Under the pieces are notes generated by a model that saw nothing but the letters and a program-made list of their open reading frames with translations, was not told where the DNA came from and did no database searches. A DNA stretch of 47,410 nucleotides. Source: Eubacteriales bacterium. Its GTDB lineage: Bacteria > Bacillota > Clostridia > Oscillospirales > CAG-272. The stretch covers positions 1 to 47,410 of the forward strand of contig JAZSMX010000161.1 in NCBI GenBank assembly GCA_045536125.1, read 5' to 3'. The translations under genes and the position numbers were made by a program. The first letter of the stretch is position 1. Each line of letters begins with the position of its first letter. Positions 26,714-45,308 of the stretch are shown piece by piece.

Positions 26714-28306
26714 TTAGAATTGCGAATAAATAAACTGATTTGCATCATATCCGATGCCGTATGATCCAAAGATCACGATGACCGTAAAGATCAAACAGAT
26801 CAAGGCGAACCACAGAACAACGGATTTTGAGGCAATGCGGTAACGCACGGGTGTTTCCTTTCCTGCGCGGCTGACAAAAAACACAATGACAGCACTCAGA
26901 AGAATCACCGCAAAATCAAAATAGGAAAGCCCGAAGGAGAGAAGTCCGCCTTGGAAAAGCTCCCCGACGTTGAAAACTGTAACCATGCTTCCCCACTGAG
27001 AAAACGTGGTAGGGACATCGCGGTAGCAGTCCAGCGATCGGATCAGTCCCATCAAAAGGAAGGTACGAACGGCACACCATGCGCCCCATACTGAAGAAGA
27101 ACCCAACCGCGGGAATTTTTTATGGAAAACGCGGTAAAGCGGCTCCAACTCACGGGAGACGAGAATCACCAGGCAGTTAAGAAGTCCCCAAACAATAAAA
27201 TTCCATCCCGCACCGTGCCAAAGACCTGTCAAAAACCAAGTCACCACTGTGGCGAAATATACGGGAAGACGAAGACCGAGCGCGCGGCCGAATTTCTTGC
27301 ACGAAAAGGAAGAAAAGCGTTGCATCGGCTTGGAAACGGAGAGCGGATAAAAGACGTAATCCGTGAACCATGAGCCCATGGTAATGTGCCATCGATTCCA
27401 GTATTCCTTGGTGGATTTTGAGGAAAAGGGACGGTTGAAATTTTCCGTCAGCTTGATCCCCATCATTTCGGAAAGACCGATGGTAATGTCGATGCCACCT
27501 GTAAAATCACCGTAGATCTGCGCGGAGTACAAAAGGATCAGAAGAAGAACGTAAATTCCCTGATACTCCGACGGATTTTCGATCAACACCTTGATTCCCA
27601 CCATCGCGGTATCCGCCATCAACAGCTTTTTAAAATATCCCCACATCACGCGCAAAAATCCTGCGCGGAAGGAATACGCATCAAAGCGGTGAGGAGAAAT
27701 CAGTTGATCGTGTAAAGCGTCAAAGCGGCTGATCGGTCCTTGAAGAAGCTGCGGAAAGAAGGACACGAAGAGCAAAAGCTTACAGTAATTGCGCTCCGCA
27801 TGCACCTTCTTGCGGTAAACGTCGATCAGATACCCCATGGATTGGAAGGTATAGAAGGAGATGCCAAGCGGCAACAAGAGTGAAGGGACAGAGAAGCCCT
27901 CTCCACCGAAGAGCATTACCACGTCGCTGACAACGCCGACGGCAAACGCCGTGTATTTGAGGACCGCAAGCATACCAAGCCCCAGAACAAGACCTGACAA
28001 AAGCAAACGGAATCTCTTTTTCTTTTCCTTTGCGCGATATGCCTTTCGCGCCGCCTTGTCCATGTCCTCCCGATGCAATTCGACAAACGCGTCCTCCGCG
28101 TCCGCCCGCTTTTGCAAAAGACGTGAGATCACGTACGTGACGGTTGCCGTATAAAAGATGAAAAAGAAGAGCTCAATGCCGCACAGCGCATAAAAAACAA
28201 GGCCGGAAAGCAGGAGCACCCACCACTGCGCGCGCCTTGGAACCAGAAAGTATAACAGCAGCGTCAGGCAAGCAAAGAGCACAAACGCACCCGATGTAAA
28301 CAGCAT
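26714..28306 (-). CDS. MBOAT family O-acyltransferase (DltB/AlgI-like) with a fused C-terminal FIYxxF motif
   Basis: LPLGISFYTFQ, FFPQLLQGPI, WGYFKK, ENFNRPF, WNRWHITM, catalytic GLWHG; ends FIYSQF. Confidence 0.93.
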   Translation of the reverse strand: MLFTSGAFVLFACLTLLLYFLVPRRAQWWVLLLSGLVFYALCGIELFFFIFYTATVTYVISRLLQKRADAEDAFVELHREDMDKAARKAYRAKEKKKRFRLLLSGLVLGLGMLAVLKYTAFAVGVVSDVVMLFGGEGFSVPSLLLPLGISFYTFQSMGYLIDVYRKKVHAERNYCKLLLFVSFFPQLLQGPISRFDALHDQLISPHRFDAYSFRAGFLRVMWGYFKKLLMADTAMVGIKVLIENPSEYQGIYVLLLILLYSAQIYGDFTGGIDITIGLSEMMGIKLTENFNRPFSSKSTKEYWNRWHITMGSWFTDYVFYPLSVSKPMQRFSSFSCKKFGRALGLRLPVYFATVVTWFLTGLWHGAGWNFIVWGLLNCLVILVSRELEPLYRVFHKKFPRLGSSSVWGAWCAVRTFLLMGLIRSLDCYRDVPTTFSQWGSMVTVFNVGELFQGGLLSFGLSYFDFAVILLSAVIVFFVSRAGKETPVRYRIASKSVVLWFALICLIFTVIVIFGSYGIGYDANQFIYSQF

Positions 28307-28315
28307 ACCGACCGA

Positions 28316-28543
28316 TTATTCCTCGTCCAGTCTCTCAATCATCGCAAGGATGGTTTGCACGTTCTGGAAGTTTTCGGGGATCAGCTCCTCGGGGGGAACT
28401 TCAACGTCAAAGGTTTGCGAAATTTCGGTTACCAAGCGAACCATATCCAAGGAATCCAGCACACCCTCCTCGTAAAGATCGTCCACCGAAGAAAAATCCA
28501 CGTCGGGATGTAATTGGTTCAAAATTTGCAAAAGTGCTTCCAT
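28316..28543 (-). CDS. Acyl/aminoacyl carrier protein (DltC-like)
   Basis: 75 aa, acidic; GVLDSLDM phosphopantetheine Ser; PENF motif; AAAGGA RBS. Confidence 0.9.
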   Translation of the reverse strand: MEALLQILNQLHPDVDFSSVDDLYEEGVLDSLDMVRLVTEISQTFDVEVPPEELIPENFQNVQTILAMIERLDEE

Positions 28544-34656: not shown

Positions 34657-35340
34657 ATGAATATCACTTATCTTGGACAAGCGGGCTTACTTTTTGAAGC
34701 AGACGGCAAAAAGATCGTCATCGATCCGTATCTCTCGGACAACGTCAGGAACTTCGAACCCGAAAATGCGCGTCGCCTTCCCATAGACGAACGGTTTCTC
34801 GAAATTGCTCCCGACATAATCCTGATCACGCACAATCACCTTGACCACCTGGATCATGAAACGCTCAAGCACTATCTCAAAAGGGATTCCCAAGCGTTCG
34901 TCTTCTGCCCTACGGGCGGATATCAGGAATTGCGAAAAACCTATCCCGATACCCGTTGCAACTATGTTCTTTTCAATGACGGTACAGAATGGACGGAGGG
35001 AGGTATCCGCATTCGTGCGGTCGCAGCGGAGCACTCCGATCCCAACGCAATCGGCATCATCCTTAGCTTTGAAGGAAAAAACTACTATATCACGGGAGAC
35101 ACGCTGTACAGTGAACGCGTTTTTGCATCACTTCCAAGCGAACCGATCTACGCAGTTTTCCTTCCGTGTAACGGACGCGGTAACAATATGAACATGACGG
35201 ATGCCTCGCGCTTTGCCGCGCGCATCGGTGCTCAATATGCCGTTCCCTTCCACATCGGTATGTTTGACAGCTTCACCGACGAAGCGTTCACGCATCCCGC
35301 AAAGATCACCCCGAAAATATACGAAAAAATCATCTTTTAA
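34657..35340 (+). CDS. MBL-fold metallo-hydrolase (UlaG-like lactonase family)
   Basis: YLGQAG, IDPYLSD, THNHLDHLD, AEH, TGDT, NMN, PFH. Confidence 0.88.
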   Translation: MNITYLGQAGLLFEADGKKIVIDPYLSDNVRNFEPENARRLPIDERFLEIAPDIILITHNHLDHLDHETLKHYLKRDSQAFVFCPTGGYQELRKTYPDTRCNYVLFNDGTEWTEGGIRIRAVAAEHSDPNAIGIILSFEGKNYYITGDTLYSERVFASLPSEPIYAVFLPCNGRGNNMNMTDASRFAARIGAQYAVPFHIGMFDSFTDEAFTHPAKITPKIYEKIIF

Positions 35341-35386
35341 AAAACGTGGGACAAGTCAAATCCGTTTGACTTGTCCCACGTTTTTT
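35339..35386. terminator. Bidirectional terminator
   Basis: Perfect 22-bp inverted repeat aaaaaacgtgggacaagtcaaa-tccg-tttgacttgtcccacgtttttt. Confidence 0.9.
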
Positions 35387-35400
35387 GAGAAGAACTCTTT

Positions 35401-36045
35401 TTAGGAAGCCTTTTTGCTCTTCAAGGTAAACTTTGATTCCGTTCCCTTGCACAAGCGGACAATATTTTGATGATGGCGTGCAATCACCAGTGCGGAAAGA
35501 ATGCATGCAGTCACGATCACAGCCCAATCACGGTTTCCGAGAATCAAAAGAACAATCGGGCTTGTAAACGCAAAGGTCATGGATGCCAAGGACATATACT
35601 TGATCGTCAACAGGATTACAACAAAGATTCCAAAACAGATCAAACCCATCCGCCAATCCACAAACCAGATTCCGGAAAGATAAGCAAGAACGGCTTTTCC
35701 CCCCTTGAACCTGTACCACACGGGGAAGCAATGTCCCAGCATACAGAAGAGCAAGGATAACACAGCACCGAACTGTCCCGCATTTCCAAAGAAAACGCCA
35801 AACAGAATCATGAAGGTTACGACGGGAATGATCGTCTTGAAAATATCGATCGCCATCGCCGCAAAGGTTGCAGGGCAAAAACCGTGCACGCGCTTGAAAT
35901 TGGTAAACCCGGGGTTGCCGCTTCCCTTCGTTCGGATATCCTCATGATAAACCAAGCGTGAGAGAATGATCGCACCGTTGATTCCACCGAGAAGATAGGA
36001 AGAAAGAGCTGCGATGATGGAAAGCACAATAAATTCAGTCGACAT
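35401..36045 (-). CDS. plsY: Acyl-phosphate:glycerol-3-phosphate acyltransferase
   Basis: SYLLG, DIRTKGSGNPGFTN, DIFK, GHCFPVWYRFKGGKAV, KYMSLASM, RHHQNIVRLCKGTE. Confidence 0.93.
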   Translation of the reverse strand: MSTEFIVLSIIAALSSYLLGGINGAIILSRLVYHEDIRTKGSGNPGFTNFKRVHGFCPATFAAMAIDIFKTIIPVVTFMILFGVFFGNAGQFGAVLSLLFCMLGHCFPVWYRFKGGKAVLAYLSGIWFVDWRMGLICFGIFVVILLTIKYMSLASMTFAFTSPIVLLILGNRDWAVIVTACILSALVIARHHQNIVRLCKGTESKFTLKSKKAS

Positions 36046-36063
36046 AGAAATCCCCTTTCTGTT

Positions 36064-38979
36064 TTAGGCGTCCAGCACAGCGAAAAGACTGCGAAGACGT
36101 ATTTTGACCGCTCCGAGATTCGTAATTTCGTCAATTTTGATTTGCGTATAAAGTTTTCCCGCACTTTCAATGATTGAACGGGTTTCATCGGTTGTGACGG
36201 CATCCACTCCGCAACCGAAGGAAACAAGCTGGACAAGATCGATGTCAAGATCCTTACATTCACTGACAAACCTGGCGGCACTGTAAAGACGGGAGTGATA
36301 CGTCCATTGATTCAGCACCGTTGTTTCGATCAAGCCGCCCCTGTGCGCCACAGAATCCTCTGTGACAACAACCGCTCCCATATCGGTAATCAAGCGGTGG
36401 ATTCCGTGATTGATTTCCGGATCGGTGTGATACGGTCTGCCCGCAAGCACAACCACACGTCTTCCCTCACGCTTGGCAATCTCAAGATACTCGTCGGCAA
36501 GATCCTTCAGCTTCTGCATATAGGAACGGTATTCCGCATAAGCGGCGGTTGCCGCCTTTTTGACAAGAGCGGCATCCAGCTCTATCCCGTACTCCTTCAT
36601 CATGCGAAGGAAATACTTCACAAAGAGCTTGGGATTGTGGAGTCCTACAAATCCGTTGATAAAAGCAATCTCCTTCGGGAAGCGCACGTTGTTTTTGATC
36701 AGCGCGGGATAATATGCCACCACAGGACAGTTGTAGTGATTGGCACCGAGAGATTCATCAAGATTATAGGTCATGCTGGGATAGAAGATCATATCCACCT
36801 TTTTCGTGAAAAGATCCTCCATATGCCCATGCAAAAGCTTTGCGGGATAACAAACCGTATCCGACGGAATGGTATGCTGTCCCTTGATATAAAGCTTGTG
36901 GTTGGATTCTCCGGAAACCACCACGTTATATCCCAAAGAGGAAAACAGCGTATGCCAGAAGGGCAACAGCTCGTACATATTCAATCCCATCGGGAGACCG
37001 ACGGTAGGCTTTCCTTCGACGCACTCGTTTTTACGGTATGCGGAAAGCAATGCGAGCTTTTCCTCATAAAGATCGTATCTTTTCAGCTCGCTCTTTTTCT
37101 CCAAAGGCTTTTCGCATCGGTTTCCCGCAATATAGCGTTCCCCGGTAGAAAAGGTATTGACTGTCAAACGGCAACGGTTGTTGCAGCCCTTGCAGGTAAA
37201 CGCTTTGACGTCATGAGAAAACTCCGCGAGTGCCTTGGCATCTACAATCCGGCTTTTCTCACCTTCCGCGGTACGTTCCTTCGCATAGAGGGCAGCACCG
37301 TAAGCCCCCATCAATCCCGCCACAGAGGGGCGCAGTACTTCTCTTCCCGTTTCCTGCTCAAATGCCCTTAACACCGCATCATTGAGGAAGGTACCGCCCT
37401 GCACAACGATCTTTTTACCAAGACTTGCGGGATTGGCACAGCGAATCACTTTATACAGTGCGTTTTTGACGACACTGATCGAAAGCCCCGCGGAAATATT
37501 CTCGATGGTAGCACCATCCTTTTGCGCTTGCTTTACCGAGCTGTTCATGAACACGGTGCAACGCGAGCCGAGATCAACGGGCGCATCCGCAAGCAATGCA
37601 AGCTGAGCAAAGTCCTTGACGGAATACCCGAGAACTCCGGCAAAGGTTTGCAGGAAGGATCCGCATCCGGACGAGCATGCCTCATTCAAAAAGATATTAT
37701 CGATGGCACCGTTCTTGATGCGGAAGCATTTGATGTCCTGACCGCCGATGTCCAGAATAAAATCCACGTCAGGGCAGAAATGCTTTGCCGCCGTATAGTG
37801 AGCAATCGTCTCCACGATGCCATGATCGATATGAAATGCACTTCGTATGATTTGTTCGCCGTATCCCGTTGCGGCAGCCCCCACGATGTTAATATCGGGA
37901 TACTCACGGTACAGTTCTTCCAGATAATTCTTAATGATCGGAACAGGATTTCCGCTATTCGGTGTATACAGCGTACGGAAAAGATTTCCATCCTCATCAC
38001 AAAGAAGTGTCTTGACGGTCGTTGAACCCGCATCAATTCCGAGATACATCCGAGATGCAGGCTTCGAAAGCGTGGTAATCCCATTGGAATCTTCCTCATG
38101 TCGCTTTACAAACGCATCAAGCTCCTCCTTGGAAGCAAACAAAGGAGGACAGCCGGGATATGCGTGAAGAGAGGTATAATTCTCTACGCGCGTTGCAAGA
38201 GACGAAGGATCAAATTCCTTAGAAGAAGCGGAATATGCCGCGCCCATCGCAACAAAATACAAGGAGTTTTCGGGACACACACCTTTTGCGTTCAACACGT
38301 CATCAAAGGCTGCGCGCAACGATGAGAAAAAGGTCAGAGGACCGCCCAAATACAGCACGTTCCCTTCGATCCGTCTTCCCTGCGCAAGCCCTCCTACCGT
38401 TTGATTGACGACTGCATAAAGGATGCTTCCCGCAATGTCCTCCTTGCGCGCGCCTTGGTTCAGAAGGGGCTGTACGTCGGATTTTGCAAACACACCGCAA
38501 CGGGATGCAATGGTATAGATCTTTTCGCGTTTCTTTGCCAACTCATCCATTTCATCGGAGGAAACGTTCATCAACTCCGCCATCTGATCGATAAACGCCC
38601 CCGTACCGCCGGCGCAGGTTCCGTTCATCCGAATTTCCATTCCATCGGTCAGAAACAGAATTTTGGCGTCCTCTCCGCCCAACTCAACGACAGCATCCGT
38701 TTCGGGGAAACGAGCCTTGACCGCCGTGCGCGTCGCATACACCTCTTGAACAAAAGGAAGCTCCATATCGGTAGCAAGTCCCATTCCGGCAGATCCGGAA
38801 ACAGAAAGAAGCATATGTTCTCCGGGATAAGCGGCGGCAACCAAGCGCAGCAGCTCTGCCATTTTCTCCGCAATTTTGGATTTGTGACGCTCATAGCTTT
38901 GATAGATCAGCGCTCCGTCCTCATCGAACAAAGCACATTTGATCGTCGTAGAACCGATGTCAATTCCAAGCCGCTTCAT
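36064..38979 (-). CDS. plsA: PlsA-like plasmalogen synthase subunit: two BadF/BcrAD ASKHA activase domains plus a DUF2229 reductase/dehydratase domain
   Basis: 971 aa; GIDIGSTT / ELGGED / MNGTCAGGTG / ASRCGVF, then GIDAGSTT / DIGGQD / LNEACSSGCG / GSRCTVF, then CKGCNNRC, GNRCE, SDTVCYPAK, SFGCGVD; architecture matches clostridial PlsA. Confidence 0.8.
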   Translation of the reverse strand: MKRLGIDIGSTTIKCALFDEDGALIYQSYERHKSKIAEKMAELLRLVAAAYPGEHMLLSVSGSAGMGLATDMELPFVQEVYATRTAVKARFPETDAVVELGGEDAKILFLTDGMEIRMNGTCAGGTGAFIDQMAELMNVSSDEMDELAKKREKIYTIASRCGVFAKSDVQPLLNQGARKEDIAGSILYAVVNQTVGGLAQGRRIEGNVLYLGGPLTFFSSLRAAFDDVLNAKGVCPENSLYFVAMGAAYSASSKEFDPSSLATRVENYTSLHAYPGCPPLFASKEELDAFVKRHEEDSNGITTLSKPASRMYLGIDAGSTTVKTLLCDEDGNLFRTLYTPNSGNPVPIIKNYLEELYREYPDINIVGAAATGYGEQIIRSAFHIDHGIVETIAHYTAAKHFCPDVDFILDIGGQDIKCFRIKNGAIDNIFLNEACSSGCGSFLQTFAGVLGYSVKDFAQLALLADAPVDLGSRCTVFMNSSVKQAQKDGATIENISAGLSISVVKNALYKVIRCANPASLGKKIVVQGGTFLNDAVLRAFEQETGREVLRPSVAGLMGAYGAALYAKERTAEGEKSRIVDAKALAEFSHDVKAFTCKGCNNRCRLTVNTFSTGERYIAGNRCEKPLEKKSELKRYDLYEEKLALLSAYRKNECVEGKPTVGLPMGLNMYELLPFWHTLFSSLGYNVVVSGESNHKLYIKGQHTIPSDTVCYPAKLLHGHMEDLFTKKVDMIFYPSMTYNLDESLGANHYNCPVVAYYPALIKNNVRFPKEIAFINGFVGLHNPKLFVKYFLRMMKEYGIELDAALVKKAATAAYAEYRSYMQKLKDLADEYLEIAKREGRRVVVLAGRPYHTDPEINHGIHRLITDMGAVVVTEDSVAHRGGLIETTVLNQWTYHSRLYSAARFVSECKDLDIDLVQLVSFGCGVDAVTTDETRSIIESAGKLYTQIKIDEITNLGAVKIRLRSLFAVLDA

Positions 38980-40283
38980 CCTACCACCTCACTTTCGGTC
39001 TCATAGGACTCCCCGTCTCGTGCCAATGCCAGCATCAGCTTGATGCGGTTTTCCTGGTTGACCTTCGAAGCCCCCGCATCGTAGTCGATCGGGCAGATGT
39101 TTGCCTTGGGATACATCTCGCGCAACGTACGGATCGTTCCCTTACCGACCACATGATTCGGCAAGCATCCGAAGGGTTGCGCACAAATAACATTATGGTA
39201 TCCCTTTTCAATCAGCTCCGCAACCTCTGCGGGCAACAACCATCCTTCGCCCATCTTCACACCGCGTCCGATGATCTTGTCACCAAGCTCACGGATACTT
39301 GCAAAGGATGTGGGAGTCACAAACTCCGGGTACTCGCTGAGCACCTCTACAAAGATCTTCTCAATGCGATCCGTCAGTGCGCTTCCCCCCTTGGAAATCA
39401 TTGCCGATTTAAAGCTCTTTCCGTAAAGGTGATAATCAGTTTGCTTGTTATCAAACATAAACTGGAAAAATCCAAGCACACCGGGCACCATATATTCGCA
39501 ATCCTGCGAATCCAAAAATTCTTCAAGCCCGTTGTTTCCAAAGGGAGAATACTTGACATAGATCTCCCCTACGATGCCAACGCGCGTCTTTTTGATGTCT
39601 CTTCTCGGAATCTCGTGAAAATCCTTGGCGATTGCGTGCAAATTCTCGCGGAATGCCTTTCCGAACAATCCCTTATTATGGCGGAACTGCTCTGCCAATT
39701 TGGAATACCAACGGTCAATTACTTTTTGGCAATCCCCTTTGTTAACCTCATACGGCCGTACCTGATTTCTCAAAAGCATCAGCATATCCCCGTAAATGAT
39801 GGCAACCATCGCCTTTGCGATCATCATTGGCGTAATCTTGAAGCCGCTTGTTTTTTCCATCCCCGTGAAGCTCAGGGAAATCACGGGAACGTAGTCCATC
39901 CCCATATTGTGAAGCGCCTTTCGCAAAAGCCATATGTAATTGGAAGCACGGCATCCGCCACCCGTCTGGAATTGAATCAGCGCACATTTGTGCGGATCGT
40001 ATTCCCCGCTTGTCAAGGCGTGCAGCTGCTGACCGCTGATACAGATTGCCGGGTAACACATGTCATTATGAATAAACTCCAGTCCCTTATCAACAACCTG
40101 CTTTCCTCTGCTCTTTAAAATCACAAGATCATAACCGTACATATTGAAGATCAGCTTGATCAATTCCATATGCACAGGGAAAATGTCCGGTGCCAAAATC
40201 TTATGGGTGGATTTCATTTCCTTGGTAAATTCCGGAGGGGAAAACACATGAGAAGACGGGGCTGCGTTTTTTTTCTTTGACAT
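38976..40283 (-). CDS. plsR: PlsR-like plasmalogen synthase subunit (2-hydroxyacyl-CoA dehydratase-like)
   Basis: 435 aa; HNDMCYPA, QTGGGCRASNY, GIVGEIYVK, GEGWLL, QPFGCLPNHV, IDYD; stop overlaps the plsA start. Confidence 0.78.
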   Translation of the reverse strand: MSKKKNAAPSSHVFSPPEFTKEMKSTHKILAPDIFPVHMELIKLIFNMYGYDLVILKSRGKQVVDKGLEFIHNDMCYPAICISGQQLHALTSGEYDPHKCALIQFQTGGGCRASNYIWLLRKALHNMGMDYVPVISLSFTGMEKTSGFKITPMMIAKAMVAIIYGDMLMLLRNQVRPYEVNKGDCQKVIDRWYSKLAEQFRHNKGLFGKAFRENLHAIAKDFHEIPRRDIKKTRVGIVGEIYVKYSPFGNNGLEEFLDSQDCEYMVPGVLGFFQFMFDNKQTDYHLYGKSFKSAMISKGGSALTDRIEKIFVEVLSEYPEFVTPTSFASIRELGDKIIGRGVKMGEGWLLPAEVAELIEKGYHNVICAQPFGCLPNHVVGKGTIRTLREMYPKANICPIDYDAGASKVNQENRIKLMLALARDGESYETESEVVG

Positions 40284-40308
40284 AAAAAACCTGCCTTTTT
40301 TGGATTTT

Positions 40309-41964
40309 TTATTCGGCAACCAAAATATAATCGTAAATATCCTGACCGCCATCCGCCTCGCAGGTCTCCGCAAGGGGATATTTGCTTTGCAGATAGGCCA
40401 TGATCGGAGCGGACTCTTCTTCGCTCACGCCGTTTCCGCGAATCAGTAAAAGAAGCGCGTGGGACGTCGGATCAAGAGCATCTGCCGTGCGGCAAACCAC
40501 CTCTTCGCGACTCTTGCCCGCAAACAGAATTTTCTTTCCTTCAATCCCGATGTAGTCACCCTTTTGCACCTTGACACCGTTCATTTCGGCATCACGGATG
40601 CTCTTTGAAATTTCAGCAGTCAGAACGCCTTCCATCGAAGCGTTCATTTCCTCTTCAATGGCATCCGCATCACCGCTGTCAAGATCCAGCATAGAAAGCA
40701 CCGCATAGGCATCCCCGATCGATTTTGTCGGGATCACTCTCACATCGCTCCCCGAATAGAGCTGTGCTGCCTGCTTTGCCGCAAGAAGAATATTTCCGTT
40801 GTTCGGTAAAACAAAAACAACGTCCGCATTGACGCGGTCAAAGGCGCGCAAAAAGTCCTCGGCACTCGGATTCATGGTTTGTCCGCCGACGATGACCTCG
40901 TCCGCACCCATTTCCGTAAACGCCTGTCGGATTCCCTCTCCCGTCGCCACGGTCACGATCGAAAAAGGAGTACGCTCCTTCGTACTCGGCACATTCTGCA
41001 AAACCCGCTCCTCTTTTTTGGCATTTCCGTTGTGCTGAAGCATCATATTTTCTATTTTGACGGTGAGAAACTCACCGAAGCGTTGGCAAAATTCAAGAAC
41101 TCGGTAAGGCGTCATGGTATGCACGTGAATCTTTACAATCGTTCCGTTCTTCACAAGAACCACCGAATCCCCTACGGTTTTTAAGAACTCTGTGATTACA
41201 TCCGCATCAAAATGTGCGGTATCCACCTTGCAGTTCTGCAAACGCAACAACAGCTCCGTACAGTACCCAAACTCCATCACCGTATTCTCGTCAAACAAAT
41301 CGGGATCGACCGACTGTAAGGAGGACGTCGGAACGTCGGAGGTCTCGGTGATCTCTTCACCGCAAAGACAAGCGTACATACCTTTGGCAATATAGAGAAG
41401 ACCTGCTCCGCCCGAATCGACAACACCCGCTTCCCGAAGGATCGGCAAAAGCTCGGGAGTGCGTTCCAAGGAACGCTCGGCTTCTTCCAAAAACGCCTTG
41501 AAATATTCTTTTGGCGTTTCACAATTTTTGTTTGCCGCATAACCGCCCGCATCACGCATCACTGTAAGAATCGTTCCCTCTGTGGGTGTCATCACCGATT
41601 CAAAGGCACAACCGACACCGCATGCAATCGCCTTTTCCAGCGTATGCATGTCCGCTTCTCGATATGTCTGAAAGCCCTGCGCGATTCCCGCAAAAAACTG
41701 GGATAGGATCACACCGGAGTTTCCTCTGGCGCTGAGCAGCATTCCTTCGGAAATTTTGGATGCCGCATCACAAAGCGAAGCAGTCACGTTTTTTGCCGCC
41801 TTCACTCCGCCCTGCATCGTCAACATCATATTTTCACCCGTATCTCCGTCGGGAATCGGAAACACGTTCAGATCATTGACCTCTTCCACATGAGCATGAA
41901 GATTTCTCGCGCCCGCCGCGACCATATCCGCCCAAAGAAAGCCGTCAAGAAGCTCTTCTCTCAT
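40309..41964 (-). CDS. fakA: DAK2-domain fatty acid kinase catalytic subunit
   Basis: LNVFPIPDGDTGENM, ARGNSGVILSQ, EGTILTV, GVVDSGGAG, FGYCTE, KIHVHT, GGQTMNPS, LPNNGNI, GGQDIY. Confidence 0.9.
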   Translation of the reverse strand: MREELLDGFLWADMVAAGARNLHAHVEEVNDLNVFPIPDGDTGENMMLTMQGGVKAAKNVTASLCDAASKISEGMLLSARGNSGVILSQFFAGIAQGFQTYREADMHTLEKAIACGVGCAFESVMTPTEGTILTVMRDAGGYAANKNCETPKEYFKAFLEEAERSLERTPELLPILREAGVVDSGGAGLLYIAKGMYACLCGEEITETSDVPTSSLQSVDPDLFDENTVMEFGYCTELLLRLQNCKVDTAHFDADVITEFLKTVGDSVVLVKNGTIVKIHVHTMTPYRVLEFCQRFGEFLTVKIENMMLQHNGNAKKEERVLQNVPSTKERTPFSIVTVATGEGIRQAFTEMGADEVIVGGQTMNPSAEDFLRAFDRVNADVVFVLPNNGNILLAAKQAAQLYSGSDVRVIPTKSIGDAYAVLSMLDLDSGDADAIEEEMNASMEGVLTAEISKSIRDAEMNGVKVQKGDYIGIEGKKILFAGKSREEVVCRTADALDPTSHALLLLIRGNGVSEEESAPIMAYLQSKYPLAETCEADGGQDIYDYILVAE

Positions 41965-42863
41965 CACTTCACCTCGCTGACACGGTAGGTCACTTCGTTA
42001 CCGAATGCCCAGATTCCAATGGCATCGGGGCCAATGCTGGCTCCGATGATCGGACCGATGTAAACGCATACGATCTCGCGGCAAGGAATCGAGGCTGAAA
42101 TCAGCGATTTCATCATGGTCAATTCTTCCTCGGAGCAATCCGCATGCGCAATGTAGACCGTCTGCTCTTGCGGAGAAACAATCGATTCGCCAAGCATTTT
42201 TACCATATCCTTAAAGGAATTCAAGCGTCCCTTTGCCTTCTTGATCGGAGTCTGAACGCCGTCAGCATCTGAGATCAGGATCGGCTTGACTCCCATCAGA
42301 TTGCCGAAAAATGCGGCGCTTCCCGTCACACGTCCCGCGCGCTTGAGCGCGTCCAGGGAATGAACGGTTACAAACTGATTGACCTGCTTTCTTTTTGCCA
42401 TCACAGCATGGTACACGTCCTCGGCAGAGCTTCCGCTTGAAGCAAGCTCGGCGGCATAAATCGCCAGCATTCCCTCCCCCATACTGGCATTGAGGGAATC
42501 AACGCAATAAATGCTTGCCTCCGGGTAGGACTCAAGCAGTTTTTTTGCGACCACCTGCGCGGTGTTCACAGAGCCCGATTGCTTAGAAGAGCAACCAACG
42601 TAAACAATGTCACATCCCGCTTCAAGGTATTTTGTAAATACACACTGAAACTCGGGAGCGGGAACCTGTGTCGTCTTAACACGCTCTCCTCCGCGCATAA
42701 CCTCGTAAAGCTCATGCGGCGTGTAATACTCCCACAAAAGAGATGCGGGTGTCTCCTCCTCGGAGCGCACCGTATTCATACGGCAATAGTCAATCCCATA
42801 TTGTTCAAGTAATTCCTTAGAAAGATCGGAACAGGAATCGGTAAGCACTTGGAGTTTTCTCAT
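41964..42863 (-). CDS. DegV family fatty-acid-binding protein (FakB)
   Basis: LTDSCSDL, SSKQSGS, VDSLNASMGEG, LKRAGRV, VKPIL, IAHAD, IGPIIG. Confidence 0.92.
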   Translation of the reverse strand: MRKLQVLTDSCSDLSKELLEQYGIDYCRMNTVRSEEETPASLLWEYYTPHELYEVMRGGERVKTTQVPAPEFQCVFTKYLEAGCDIVYVGCSSKQSGSVNTAQVVAKKLLESYPEASIYCVDSLNASMGEGMLAIYAAELASSGSSAEDVYHAVMAKRKQVNQFVTVHSLDALKRAGRVTGSAAFFGNLMGVKPILISDADGVQTPIKKAKGRLNSFKDMVKMLGESIVSPQEQTVYIAHADCSEEELTMMKSLISASIPCREIVCVYIGPIIGASIGPDAIGIWAFGNEVTYRVSEVK

Positions 42864-42876
42864 GTCAGTTTCCTCA

Positions 42877-43470
42877 TCATTGATTCTTCAGAATTTGATG
42901 ATTTTCCCGAATACGAACCGTATACATCGTTGTCCAGAAATTGGTAACGCCAACAATGCCCATCGCCACACCCATCCAGATGCGAACATCCATACCGTAA
43001 TATGCCAGAACCATCAGAACAATTCCCGCGGCAATTTCAAGAACGGCAGAAAGAACCACGAGATACCACTTGTGGATTCCAAAACGCTGTCCTTCAATTG
43101 CAATCTGAGATTTGTTACCGCCGTCAAGCAAGGTCAGAATGGAAATTGCCGTAGGCAGAAGTACAGGAAGCTGTACCGGTTTGATGATCAGCAAAATACC
43201 AAGAATGACATTGAAAATTCCCAAAGCAAAATCCGATTGAAAAGCCAAACGGTACATATCGTTTGAGAAATACCCATAGATCCCCGTCACCCCGATCACA
43301 ATACTTGCGATTCCGACGACAATGGTTCCAAAGGAATCAAACTCGTCAAAGCTGGGGACGAGCGCGATCAAAAGTCCCGCAATCAAAAAAATGACCGAGG
43401 AACACAGGTGCATGATCTTAGCACTTTTCACAACAGCACTGTTTGTTTTTACATCGAAATGCTCGTTCAT
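42877..43470 (-). CDS. DUF308/HdeD-like membrane protein
   Basis: 197 aa, six hydrophobic segments in two repeats; AAAGGAG RBS. Confidence 0.75.
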   Translation of the reverse strand: MNEHFDVKTNSAVVKSAKIMHLCSSVIFLIAGLLIALVPSFDEFDSFGTIVVGIASIVIGVTGIYGYFSNDMYRLAFQSDFALGIFNVILGILLIIKPVQLPVLLPTAISILTLLDGGNKSQIAIEGQRFGIHKWYLVVLSAVLEIAAGIVLMVLAYYGMDVRIWMGVAMGIVGVTNFWTTMYTVRIRENHQILKNQ

Positions 43471-43509
43471 ATCGATTCTCCTTTCTGCTGATCATAAATC
43501 ATCAGCGTA

Positions 43510-43590
43510 ATTTTATCAAAACAAAATCAAAAAAACCATAGGCAAAGAGCCGAAGTTGTCCGTTTTTTGGGCATTCTCGATTGAATGTCC
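43510..43590 (-). promoter_or_regulatory. Extended -10 promoter with two GGACA-N12-TGCC palindromic operators
   Basis: TGaTAAAAT at 43518-43510; palindromes at 43540-43561 and 43569-43590. Confidence 0.55.
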
Positions 43591-43607
43591 TACATTTTTA
43601 CATTTTT

Positions 43608-44177
43608 TTACAGTTGTGAAGCATTGCCTTCACGGTGTTTTTTGCAATTTTCAAGGCAATGAGAGAACATCCCGTCAAAGATAGCTTCAAACAATTCGGA
43701 ATCAATTGAAAAATCAAGCTCTGTCTTCAAGCGGTGCATCAGTTGACCTGTCAGCCCCTGAGCGTAAAAATCGGCAATCAGCTCAAGATCTGTTACGGAA
43801 ACCCCGTAACGTACGTTCTCCGCGTGCAGCATTTCCATCAAGATCGCACGCAAGCGGCGGTTCAGATAATTTTCCAATGCTTCATGTCCAAGACTTTTGT
43901 AAAGATTGGTAAATATCTTTCGGTATTCGTTGAAAAACTCATGCAGCTCACGCATTGCATTTTTTGAGTTGTCCCTCCACGTGCCCTCCAAGGAGTCGAA
44001 CTTTGCGTCGATCACATCCTCCAGCACCTCATAAATATCATGAAAATGGTAGTAGAAGGTATTTCTTGTAATTCCGCATTCCTCCACGATATCACGCACT
44101 GTGATCTTTGAAAGAGTGCGCGTTTGCGCCAATTTGAGCGTTGCTTCCACAATTGCCTTTTTCGTTAGCTGTGACAA
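43608..44177 (-). CDS. TetR family regulator (DhaS-like, TetR_C_8 type)
   Basis: TTG start with an AGGAGG RBS; KITVRDIVEECGITRNTFYYHFHDIY HTH; IADFYAQG. Confidence 0.88.
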   Translation of the reverse strand: MSQLTKKAIVEATLKLAQTRTLSKITVRDIVEECGITRNTFYYHFHDIYEVLEDVIDAKFDSLEGTWRDNSKNAMRELHEFFNEYRKIFTNLYKSLGHEALENYLNRRLRAILMEMLHAENVRYGVSVTDLELIADFYAQGLTGQLMHRLKTELDFSIDSELFEAIFDGMFSHCLENCKKHREGNASQL

Positions 44178-44366: not shown

Positions 44367-45308
44367 ATGAAAACCAGAAACAATCTCAAGGGAACTGCCA
44401 TCCTCTGCTTTGCTTCACTCCTTTGGGGACTTGCGTTTGTGGCACAAGGGCAAGCCGCAGACAAGGTTCCTCCATTTATGTTCAACGCACTTCGCTCGTT
44501 TATCGGCTCGCTGTTTCTTCTGGGATTTCTTTTTATTACCTCGCGCCCCCGCCACCTTCCTTTGTTTCCGACCACAAAAGAAGGGCGCAAGGAGGCACTT
44601 CTCGGAGGCATTCTGTGCGGAATTCTATTGACGATCAGTGTCAATTTTCAGCAATTCGGACTCACCTATTACCCGGAAGGTACTGCCAGCGAAGCTCGCG
44701 CGGGATTTTTGACCGCCCTTTACGTAGTTCTTGTCCCGATCATTTCCGTATTTTTCGGAAAGCGCATCAAATTGCCGATCTGGATCGCCGTTGTCATTGC
44801 CATTGGCGGCATTTATATGCTGAGCTTGTCAGGCGGACTTGAGAGCATTTATCTTGGTGATATTTTGGTATTCTGCTGTGCGATCAGCTTCAGCTTTCAT
44901 ATCATGGCAGTGGATCGCTTTGCTGAGCCTGTCGGAGGAACGCTCCTATCCATGCTTCAGTTTTTTGTATGCGGTATCTTATCTCTCATTCTCTCCCTTT
45001 GCTTTGAAGCACCGATTTGGGAGGACATTCTTTCCGCGGCACCTCAAATTCTTTATACAGGCATTGTTTCCAGCGGTATCGCCTACACTCTTCAAATCTA
45101 CGGTCAACAGTATGCCGAGCCTGCCATCGCCTCTATTTCCATGAGCTTGGAAAGTGTCTTCGCGGCTTTAGGAGGTTGGCTGATTTCAGGGAACACGCTC
45201 TCTCCGCGTGAACTTTTGGGATGCACGCTTGTTTTTCTTGCCATTATTTTGGCACAGATTCCTCAATTCCTTGAAAGCAGAAGGCATCGCACTCCCACTG
45301 AAAAATAA
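44367..45308 (+). CDS. DMT/EamA family transporter
   Basis: LLWGLAFVAQ, AGFLTALYVVLVP, GDIL, AYTLQIYGQ, MSLESVFAALGG; about 10 TM segments. Confidence 0.9.
   Translation: MKTRNNLKGTAILCFASLLWGLAFVAQGQAADKVPPFMFNALRSFIGSLFLLGFLFITSRPRHLPLFPTTKEGRKEALLGGILCGILLTISVNFQQFGLTYYPEGTASEARAGFLTALYVVLVPIISVFFGKRIKLPIWIAVVIAIGGIYMLSLSGGLESIYLGDILVFCCAISFSFHIMAVDRFAEPVGGTLLSMLQFFVCGILSLILSLCFEAPIWEDILSAAPQILYTGIVSSGIAYTLQIYGQQYAEPAIASISMSLESVFAALGGWLISGNTLSPRELLGCTLVFLAIILAQIPQFLESRRHRTPTEK

Follow-up and report, generated by a model that had tools for sequence, protein, structure and literature searches.

Organization of the locus

The stretch of DNA analysed here, referred to as the window, comprises 47,410 nucleotides (contig JAZSMX010000161.1 of the metagenome-assembled genome (MAG) GCA_045536125.1) and belongs to an uncultured gut Oscillospirales bacterium. 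Its minus strand includes, at positions 35401-44177, seven co-oriented genes coding for a TetR-family regulator, a DUF308 protein, the two components of a fatty-acid kinase, two homologs of the anaerobic plasmalogen synthase PlsA/PlsR, and the acyltransferase PlsY. All seven proteins were assigned to families using Pfam and NCBIfam profiles. In the direction of transcription the genes and the associated signals are:

43608-44177, minus strand: tetR, TetR-family regulator of 189 amino acids (Pfam TetR_N and TetR_C_8)
43487-43519, minus strand: promoter-like site TTGATA-17-TATGAT, from a promoter scan, overlapping the inverted repeat of the next line
43487-43506, minus strand: inverted repeat GCTGAT-N8-ATCAGC, a candidate operator seen in the sequence just upstream of the DUF308 ribosome-binding site
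42877-43470, minus strand: DUF308 membrane protein of 197 amino acids (Pfam PF03729)
41964-42863, minus strand: degV/fakB, DegV/FakB-type fatty-acid-binding subunit of 299 amino acids (PF02645, 193.5 bits; TIGR00762, 207 bits)
40309-41967, minus strand: fakA, fatty-acid kinase catalytic subunit of 552 amino acids (Dak2, FakA_M and FakA_C; TIGR03599, 529 bits)
38976-40283, minus strand: plsR-like gene, second reductase/dehydratase subunit of 435 amino acids counted from the ATG (Enterococcus orthologs, cysteines and tree)
36064-38979, minus strand: plsA-like gene, 971 amino acids with two activase ATPase domains, a four-cysteine motif and a DUF2229 reductase domain (Pfam)
35401-36045, minus strand: plsY, acyl-phosphate:glycerol-3-phosphate acyltransferase of 214 amino acids (TIGR00023, 138.8 bits; alignment to 5XJ5)
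35339-35386, minus strand: intrinsic terminator with a perfect 22-bp stem and a U-run, which also faces the convergent gene (hairpin energy and shuffles)

From the DUF308 gene onward, consecutive genes are separated by 13, -1, 25, -4, and 18 nucleotides, the second of these values being -4 when fakA is read from its GTG start and -1 when it is read from the ATG located one codon further in. The terminator 3' of plsY has a folding energy of -34.9 kcal/mol (z = -10.4), and none of 200 shuffled sequences was as good. An earlier reading of this DNA made from the sequence alone, hereafter the original prediction, had described six co-oriented genes with these gaps, the 22-bp terminator and the upstream TetR gene, and all of them were reproduced from the coordinates and the profiles. 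The genes of the operon are presumably co-transcribed; no RNA runs that cover the stretch turned up. The flanks are unrelated to it: a gene for an EamA transporter is divergent from tetR, and a gene for an MBL-fold hydrolase lies downstream in the convergent orientation.

The components of the operon are all of known kinds; what is new is their integration, the dedicated paralog lineages to which some of them belong, and the setting, a host without detectable type II fatty-acid synthesis (FASII). The original prediction knew of no description of the integrated arrangement, and we found none in the literature searched, nor any of the linkage of fak and plsY with pls genes or of the reversed-order clade discussed below; the founding 2021 study and the supplements, which may include neighborhood data, were outside that search.

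Relationship to PlsA and PlsR

The bacterial plasmalogen synthase was reportedly identified in 2021 by Jackson and colleagues, as a stand-alone unit of one or two genes. The MAG includes one plsA-like and one plsR-like gene. The 971-amino acid protein matched PF01869 (BcrAD_BadFG) in two stretches, TIGR00241 with 250 bits, and DUF2229 with 245.7 bits, while the only Pfam match of the 435-amino acid protein was a sub-threshold one to DUF2229 (22 bits). Identities to the fused orthologs (1420-1425 amino acids) of Ca. Enterococcus murrayae and E. quebecensis were 49-51% for the PlsA part and 42% for the PlsR part; the corresponding values were 46% and 40% with the fused form of Veillonella parvula, and 52% and 46% with the split form of Clostridium mediterraneense. 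With regard to enzymes shown to make plasmalogen, the comparison covered congeners, namely the two Enterococcus species. The enzymes of lactic acid bacteria, each of which made plasmalogen in Escherichia coli, are 48-55% and 41-42% identical to C. perfringens PlsA and PlsR (PMC12838417). Since the window pair is within this range, it is no further from the Enterococcus type than the tested enzymes are from one another.

Fifteen cysteines are invariant in all 102 rows of the family alignment, and all are present in the window pair. Those kept include C122, C161, C435, C439, C474, C596, C599, C603, C622, C710, and C751 in PlsA, where a CxxCxxxC...C motif occupies residues 596-622, and C76, C111, and C373 in PlsR; PlsA C923, found in 99% of the 102 rows, is kept as well. 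The activase-domain cysteines C122/C161 and C435/C474, invariant in the 102 rows, are by analogy what we take to be cluster ligands. As in other members of the PlsA/PlsR family, Red1 (DUF2229) is accompanied by a second unit, Red2, which is PlsR; the cysteines C710, C751, and C923 of PlsA and C76, C111, and C373 of PlsR are 99-100% conserved. Judged by sequence, the 971- and 435-amino acid proteins belong to the PlsA/PlsR ester-reductase family, as proposed in the original prediction: identities, invariant cysteines and tree placement agree, and the low similarity to PlsA/PlsR that was named there as a ground for rejection was not seen with the Enterococcus orthologs (49-51% and 42% identity).

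The window has the domain set (two activases, the DUF2229 Red1 and the Red2) of the anaerobic plasmalogen synthases C. perfringens plsA-plsR (CPE1194/1195) and the plsA fusions known from Enterococcus faecalis, Lactococcus cremoris, and Bifidobacterium, and retains the family-invariant cysteines. It differs from the C. perfringens operon in that plsR comes first, in that the pair is embedded between fakB-fakA and plsY paralogs, and in that the host has no detectable FASII. In the known systems covered by the available parts of PMC12838417 and PMC9702350 there is either a single pls gene or an operon of two.

A clade with reversed gene order

Related loci were collected as a biased sample of 160, composed of the 80 most similar to the query and 80 taken from the 120 stretches found with a pattern that was back-translated, using AT-rich codons, from a conserved motif of PlsR. 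Further loci came from searches with Sarcina/Clostridium PlsR as the query (27 loci) and with a longer Clostridium-specific pattern (5 loci). C. perfringens was not among the loci obtained with either pattern or with the PlsR query. Both genes were complete in 101 loci, with plsR before plsA in 54, split plsA before plsR in 28, and plsA-plsR fusions in 19. In a tree of concatenated PlsA and PlsR (FastTree, 1382 columns, midpoint root) the 54 reversed-order rows, i.e. 53 loci and the window, were monophyletic, on a branch of length 0.30 with an SH-like support of 100. The clade has as its neighbors, within the same half of the tree, split forms in the canonical order from Sphaerochaetaceae, Tissierellales, Anaeroplasmataceae and others, and the other half of the tree includes Veillonella, Liquorilactobacillus, and Clostridium/Sarcina. 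Its members are mostly gut MAGs of uncultured Oscillospiraceae, 'Eubacteriales', and Clostridia, with a small number of rows under other names (Lachnospiraceae, and one bin each labelled Sphaerochaetaceae and Bacteroides). The original prediction knew plsA-plsR as a two-gene unit; the order here is plsR followed by plsA, the reverse of that in C. perfringens, and marks a separate clade. Clostridium massiliamazoniense (L168:3586-7998), in which plsR precedes plsA with a gap of 552 nucleotides, represents an independent reversal outside the main clade. The rows of the tree comprise no experimentally tested enzyme; those of C. perfringens, E. faecalis, and Thermotoga are not among them.

As a side observation, PlsR-like genes with 49-53% identity occur at loci L068, L070, L071, L072, L076, and L078, in the retrieved flanks of which no match covers half or more of plsA. 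Some of these loci are labelled Evtepia, and the flanks of L070 cover about 10 kb on the upstream side and 6 kb on the downstream side.

A multi-domain homolog with a different product is the glycerol ester reductase Ger (Tmari_0479; SHJ90043 in D. alkenivorans), which works on the sn-1 ester in the absence of oxygen (PMC13159169). It is a single fused protein, described with HGD-D stretches after the activase domains and DUF2229, that yields saturated alkyl ethers (PMC13159169), while the window encodes the split form. The operon could then produce saturated sn-1 alkyl ethers, as the enzymes of Thermotoga and Desulfatibacillum do, and not plasmalogens. Ger shares its pair of activase domains and its DUF2229 core with PlsA/PlsR (PMC13159169), and the half of the tree that holds the reversed-order clade is anchored by no tested enzyme, both of which are compatible with such a product. 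Ger and the window pair were compared by Pfam pattern and description; the pattern of the pair is that of the Enterococcus ortholog, and no PF06050 (HGD-D) match appeared at E values up to 5, an observation of little weight as the description of Ger may rest on other thresholds. In addition, plasmalogens are a known feature of mesophilic gut Clostridia, and alkyl ethers typically occur in thermophiles and sulfate reducers. Together these points weakly disfavor an alkyl ether product, which we regard as rather improbable.

It is also conceivable that the reversed-order enzyme reduces or dehydrates another acyl substrate, such as an acyl-phosphate or a hydroxyacyl thioester, instead of a glycerolipid ester. 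CoA thioesters are the substrates of the wider BCR/HAD superfamily, as the names of the Pfam and NCBIfam models reflect, but the clade is nested in the PlsA/PlsR family with 40-60% identity and all of the invariant residues, and a different chemistry is very unlikely.

Conservation of the linkage

Among the reversed-order loci, fakA was found upstream on the same strand in 16 of the 41 that had at least 3 kb of upstream sequence, and plsY downstream in 23 of the 48 with at least 900 nucleotides downstream. Both were adjacent in 16 loci, only plsY in 8, and only fakA in one. The order degV-fakA-plsR-plsA-plsY was found again in 16 other loci, and the full seven-gene order in six of them, each a species-level genome; because of this recurrence the seven-gene arrangement is not a product of chance. 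The original prediction would have been refuted by a cluster confined to this genome, and the neighborhood survey located 16 further linked loci. Among the loci in the canonical order, such neighbors were seen in none of the 28 split and one of the 19 fused (evaluable split and fused loci, respectively: 15 and 7 upstream, 23 and 12 downstream).

There is a second architecture, degV-fakA-plsY-plsA~plsR, in which the pls gene is of the canonical-order, fused type. It occurs in two other species, at L107:937-8000, the single fused locus with fak and plsY neighbors mentioned above, in a Ruminococcus-labelled MAG, and at L321 (G054:C29:95000-107000); genome G054 also carries a reversed-order plsR-plsA pair without such neighbors. 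Genome G037 has a degV-fakA-plsY triad of the linked paralog types (L322, G037:C12:1444-4680) apart from its own plsR-plsA (L017). As degV-fakA-plsY is joined to pls genes of two clades in two orders, the linkage arose at least twice, which speaks more strongly than any other observation for a functional adjacency. A candidate PlsY-PlsR fusion in L039, a 689-amino acid open reading frame (ORF), was rejected since the two matches are in different frames.

Paralogs of FakA, FakB and PlsY

The operon FakA scored above the TIGR03599 cut-off (529 versus 396 bits) and below that of the S. aureus-type equivalog (442 versus 975). It is 48% identical to the other FakA of the MAG, encoded on contig C134. 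In a tree of 41 FakA rows all 20 pls-linked copies were located in a clade of 22 rows with a Shimodaira-Hasegawa-like approximate likelihood ratio (SH-aLRT) support of 92, the rest of the clade being the G054 and G037 copies. This clade is apart from a genus-specific clade that includes the C134 copy, and from a distant clade with 33-39% identity. The operon DegV did not reach the cut-off of the FakB1 equivalog (126 versus 350 bits), which was the only FakB model of NCBIfam matched and was matched by all three DegV paralogs of the MAG, so that FakB1 and FakB2 types were not separable.

The operon PlsY (138.8 bits with TIGR00023, cut-off 137.2), when aligned to 5XJ5, keeps S35, N37, T41, N42, R45, H92, K104, H177, and N180 in Aquifex numbering, residues whose roles are described in PMC5700162, and has A in place of G105. 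All 26 copies linked to reversed-order pls genes fell, in a tree of 81 PlsY rows, within a clade of 28 rows (SH-aLRT 90), the two unlinked members of which come from a genome with a truncated cluster contig and from the G037 triad. Other PlsY copies of the same genomes fall elsewhere in the tree. At least two PlsY matches were present in 16 of the 17 fak-linked genomes, and at least two strong FakA matches in 14. Judging from these trees the linked FakA and PlsY are distinct paralog lineages.

The original prediction had asked whether the genome holds separate housekeeping copies of fakA and plsY. Beyond the operon, contig C134 carries another degV-fakA pair, C70 a third degV, and C33 another plsY, the product of which is predicted to be inactive. 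The C33 gene (C33:1203-1931, plus strand; L004) codes for GSGDADFNN...G where the operon copy has GSGNPGFTN...R, i.e. the changes N37D, G39D, T41N, and R45G in Aquifex numbering. In PlsY mutants N37D almost abolishes activity, R45K loses over 90% of it, and T41A has a severe effect (PMC5700162); by its sequence, the C33 protein looks inactive. The operon PlsY is the only intact PlsY found in the MAG and probably the only active one. Orthologs of the C33 PlsY in L241, L242, L244, L246, and L269 have a similar decay of motif 1 and the GH motif.

With respect to the FakA/FakB and PlsX/PlsY systems of Firmicutes (S. aureus, Streptococcus, E. faecalis), the proteins are of the same families and the presumed chemistry is the same, from fatty acid to acyl-phosphate to 1-acyl-glycerol-3-phosphate. 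In model Firmicutes the fak, plsX, and plsY genes are scattered and coexist with FASII; in the window, unlike in these organisms, a diverged FakA/FakB/PlsY set shares one operon with an ether-lipid enzyme in a host without detectable FASII. On contig C70 the third DegV/FakB gene overlaps the aldehyde dehydrogenase gene that follows it (C70:7196-9510, minus strand; L009), an arrangement that may provide a route from fatty aldehyde, a breakdown product of plasmalogens, to fatty acid.

These results bear on whether the pls genes merely landed in a general phospholipid-initiation operon, in which case the neighborhood would say nothing specific about plasmalogen supply. Such an explanation would agree with the operon PlsY being the only intact one found in the MAG, and with the 20 reversed-order loci, evaluable on both sides, in which neither fakA nor plsY is adjacent. 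It accounts poorly for two independent architectures that join fak-plsY to pls genes of different clades, for separate linked lineages of FakA and PlsY that most genomes hold alongside other copies, and for the absence of the linkage from all 28 split loci in the canonical order. We consider it distinctly unlikely.

Fatty-acid synthesis

No match to ketoacyl-synthase (PF00109) or to FabA/FabZ (PF07977) was found in the MAG, an assembly that is 88% complete. A FabF-like ORF was found in none of 18 relatives from the genus, of which 14 had no match, three had atypical ORFs of 650-790 amino acids, and one had a weak match; FabZ was not found in the genus either. Fifty genomes have reversed-order pls genes; ketoacyl-synthase or FabZ matches were found in none of the 17 that are fak-linked, and FabF-like genes in seven of the other 33. 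Odd ORFs of 650-820 amino acids with two ketoacyl-synthase-like halves are present in some relatives. The MAG does include PlsX, two PlsC-like genes, and acyl carrier protein. As no FASII genes were detected, the membranes of these organisms are apparently built from scavenged fatty acids only, and scavenging looks obligatory instead of an optional side route. The pattern suggests widespread fatty-acid auxotrophy in these gut Oscillospirales; nothing relevant to such auxotrophy in Oscillospiraceae or Ruminococcaceae was found in the literature searched.

Proposed pathway

Gene content, family membership, conservation of the linkage, paralog clades and the apparent lack of FASII were observed directly, and from this starting point we infer the biochemical steps and the product as follows. 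The operon would be a co-regulated module for the supply and modification of the membrane-lipid sn-1 chain, in which a scavenged fatty acid becomes first the sn-1 acyl chain and then the sn-1 ether, and we put the probability of this reading at about 0.6. Under the control of the TetR protein, supply and modification of the chain would be bundled in one transcription unit of an uncultured gut Oscillospirales bacterium. FakB (DegV) would bind a scavenged fatty acid, FakA would phosphorylate it to the acyl-phosphate, and PlsY would transfer the acyl group to the sn-1 position of glycerol-3-phosphate. PlsC, encoded elsewhere, and presumed head-group enzymes would then finish the lipid, and the ATP- and Fe-S-dependent PlsR/PlsA reductase-dehydratase would convert the sn-1 ester into an ether. 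By analogy with C. perfringens the product would most likely be the vinyl ether of plasmalogens, made on membrane phospholipid. The linkage would reflect co-regulation and co-inheritance of dedicated paralogs, and physical channelling would not be required.

Several observations weigh against this proposal. The fak/plsY linkage in the reversed-order clade is frequent but not obligatory, with neither gene adjacent at the 20 loci noted above, and the 160 loci are a biased sample. The support of the PlsY and FakA clades, 90 and 92 from quick searches, is below the mark of 95, and the PlsA+PlsR tree was built with FastTree only. With tested enzymes absent from that tree, the product of the clade is extrapolated by analogy. 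The MAG is 88% complete, and the absences are for that reason not proven. Finally, since its PlsY seems to be the only intact one of the MAG, the operon may be the main phospholipid-initiation operon of this organism rather than a dedicated branch.

A variant of the proposal concerns the stage at which PlsR/PlsA act. Instead of a finished phospholipid, their substrate could be the 1-acyl-glycerol-3-phosphate made by the linked PlsY, or another early intermediate, and ether lipid synthesis would in this unlikely event start at the first committed step. The location of plsR-plsA, with fakA on one side and plsY on the other (gaps of 25, -4, and 18 nucleotides), is suggestive in this regard, as are the distinct PlsY lineage that travels with the reversed-order pls genes and the apparent convergence of all steps on sn-1. 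However, plsY precedes the pls gene in the second architecture, so that the exact order is not conserved, and pls genes alone lead to plasmalogen in E. coli, with derivation from diacyl lipids (PMC9702350, PMC12838417). In its fullest form, which has only an outside chance of being correct, the dedicated FakB/FakA/PlsY would pick the sn-1 fatty acid, PlsR/PlsA would act on nascent 1-acyl-glycerol-3-phosphate or in a complex with PlsY, and the TetR_C_8 regulator would sense the state of the fatty acid or of FakB. If true, this would amount to a second, early route to bacterial plasmalogens, one that sets which fatty acids from the diet or the host are turned into ether lipids.

The proposed supply-and-modify module bears on two questions about the plasmalogen synthase, the source of its substrate and the stage of lipid assembly at which it acts. 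The operon and its relatives can be considered a natural experiment, in which a compact, portable seven-gene unit with dedicated paralogs would lead from free fatty acid to sn-1 acylation and also includes the ester reductase, in hosts apparently incapable of fatty-acid synthesis. It is also relevant to the choice between vinyl and alkyl ether products, to the use of lysophosphatidic acid, and to the fatty acids that are routed into the ether lipids of gut microbes. For the nutritional dependence of uncultured Oscillospirales, and for attempts to culture them, the apparent loss of FASII throughout the genus and the decayed PlsY paralog are relevant as well.

Regulatory region, TetR and DUF308

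The arms of the inverted repeat, GCTGAT and ATCAGC, are kept in five of the seven loci of the genus, with a variable spacer, and from its sequence the GCTGAT-N8-ATCAGC repeat is a candidate operator. A conserved non-coding motif with a consensus of about TGCCCAAAAAACGGACA is located at window positions 43540-43570 (minus strand), between tetR and the DUF308 promoter, and is present in all seven genus loci.

The operon regulator has the TetR_N + TetR_C_8 architecture, and its nearest NCBIfam model is DhaS, with 74.2 bits, below the cut-off of 129. In the dha operon of Lactococcus, DhaS is a TetR_C_8 regulator that works with the EDD-fold protein DhaQ. DegV and the Dak2 domain of FakA are presumably relatives of DhaK/DhaL-type proteins. 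The match is below the equivalog cut-off and no DhaQ-like partner is known here, so that we take DhaS as a lead only. Regulators of the TetR_N + TetR_C_8 type, 24-27% identical to that of the operon, also lie upstream of, and divergent from, the fused pls gene of two Enterococcus species and one Streptococcus. This agrees with the mention of EF1326, next to EF1327, in PMC9702350, where the regulator is said to be absent from strict anaerobes; the TetR_C_8 regulators at the present loci suggest otherwise.

The EamA-family transporter gene (window 44367-45308, plus strand) is divergent from tetR, and the pairing is kept in L011, L012, L013, and L015, so the operon TetR may also control the transporter. 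Against tetR belonging to the EamA gene, TetR_C_8 regulators adjoin the cluster without EamA in L016, L030, and L057, and also adjoin Enterococcus pls genes. The operon is a putative target of the regulator. By our own count, 11 of 17 fak-linked loci and one of 36 others have a DUF308 gene next to the cluster; a DUF308 search of the Atlas returned DUF308 clusters only.

Elsewhere in the window (26714-28543, minus strand) the gene for an MBOAT-family protein adjoins that for a small PP-binding carrier protein, forming a DltB/DltC-like pair.

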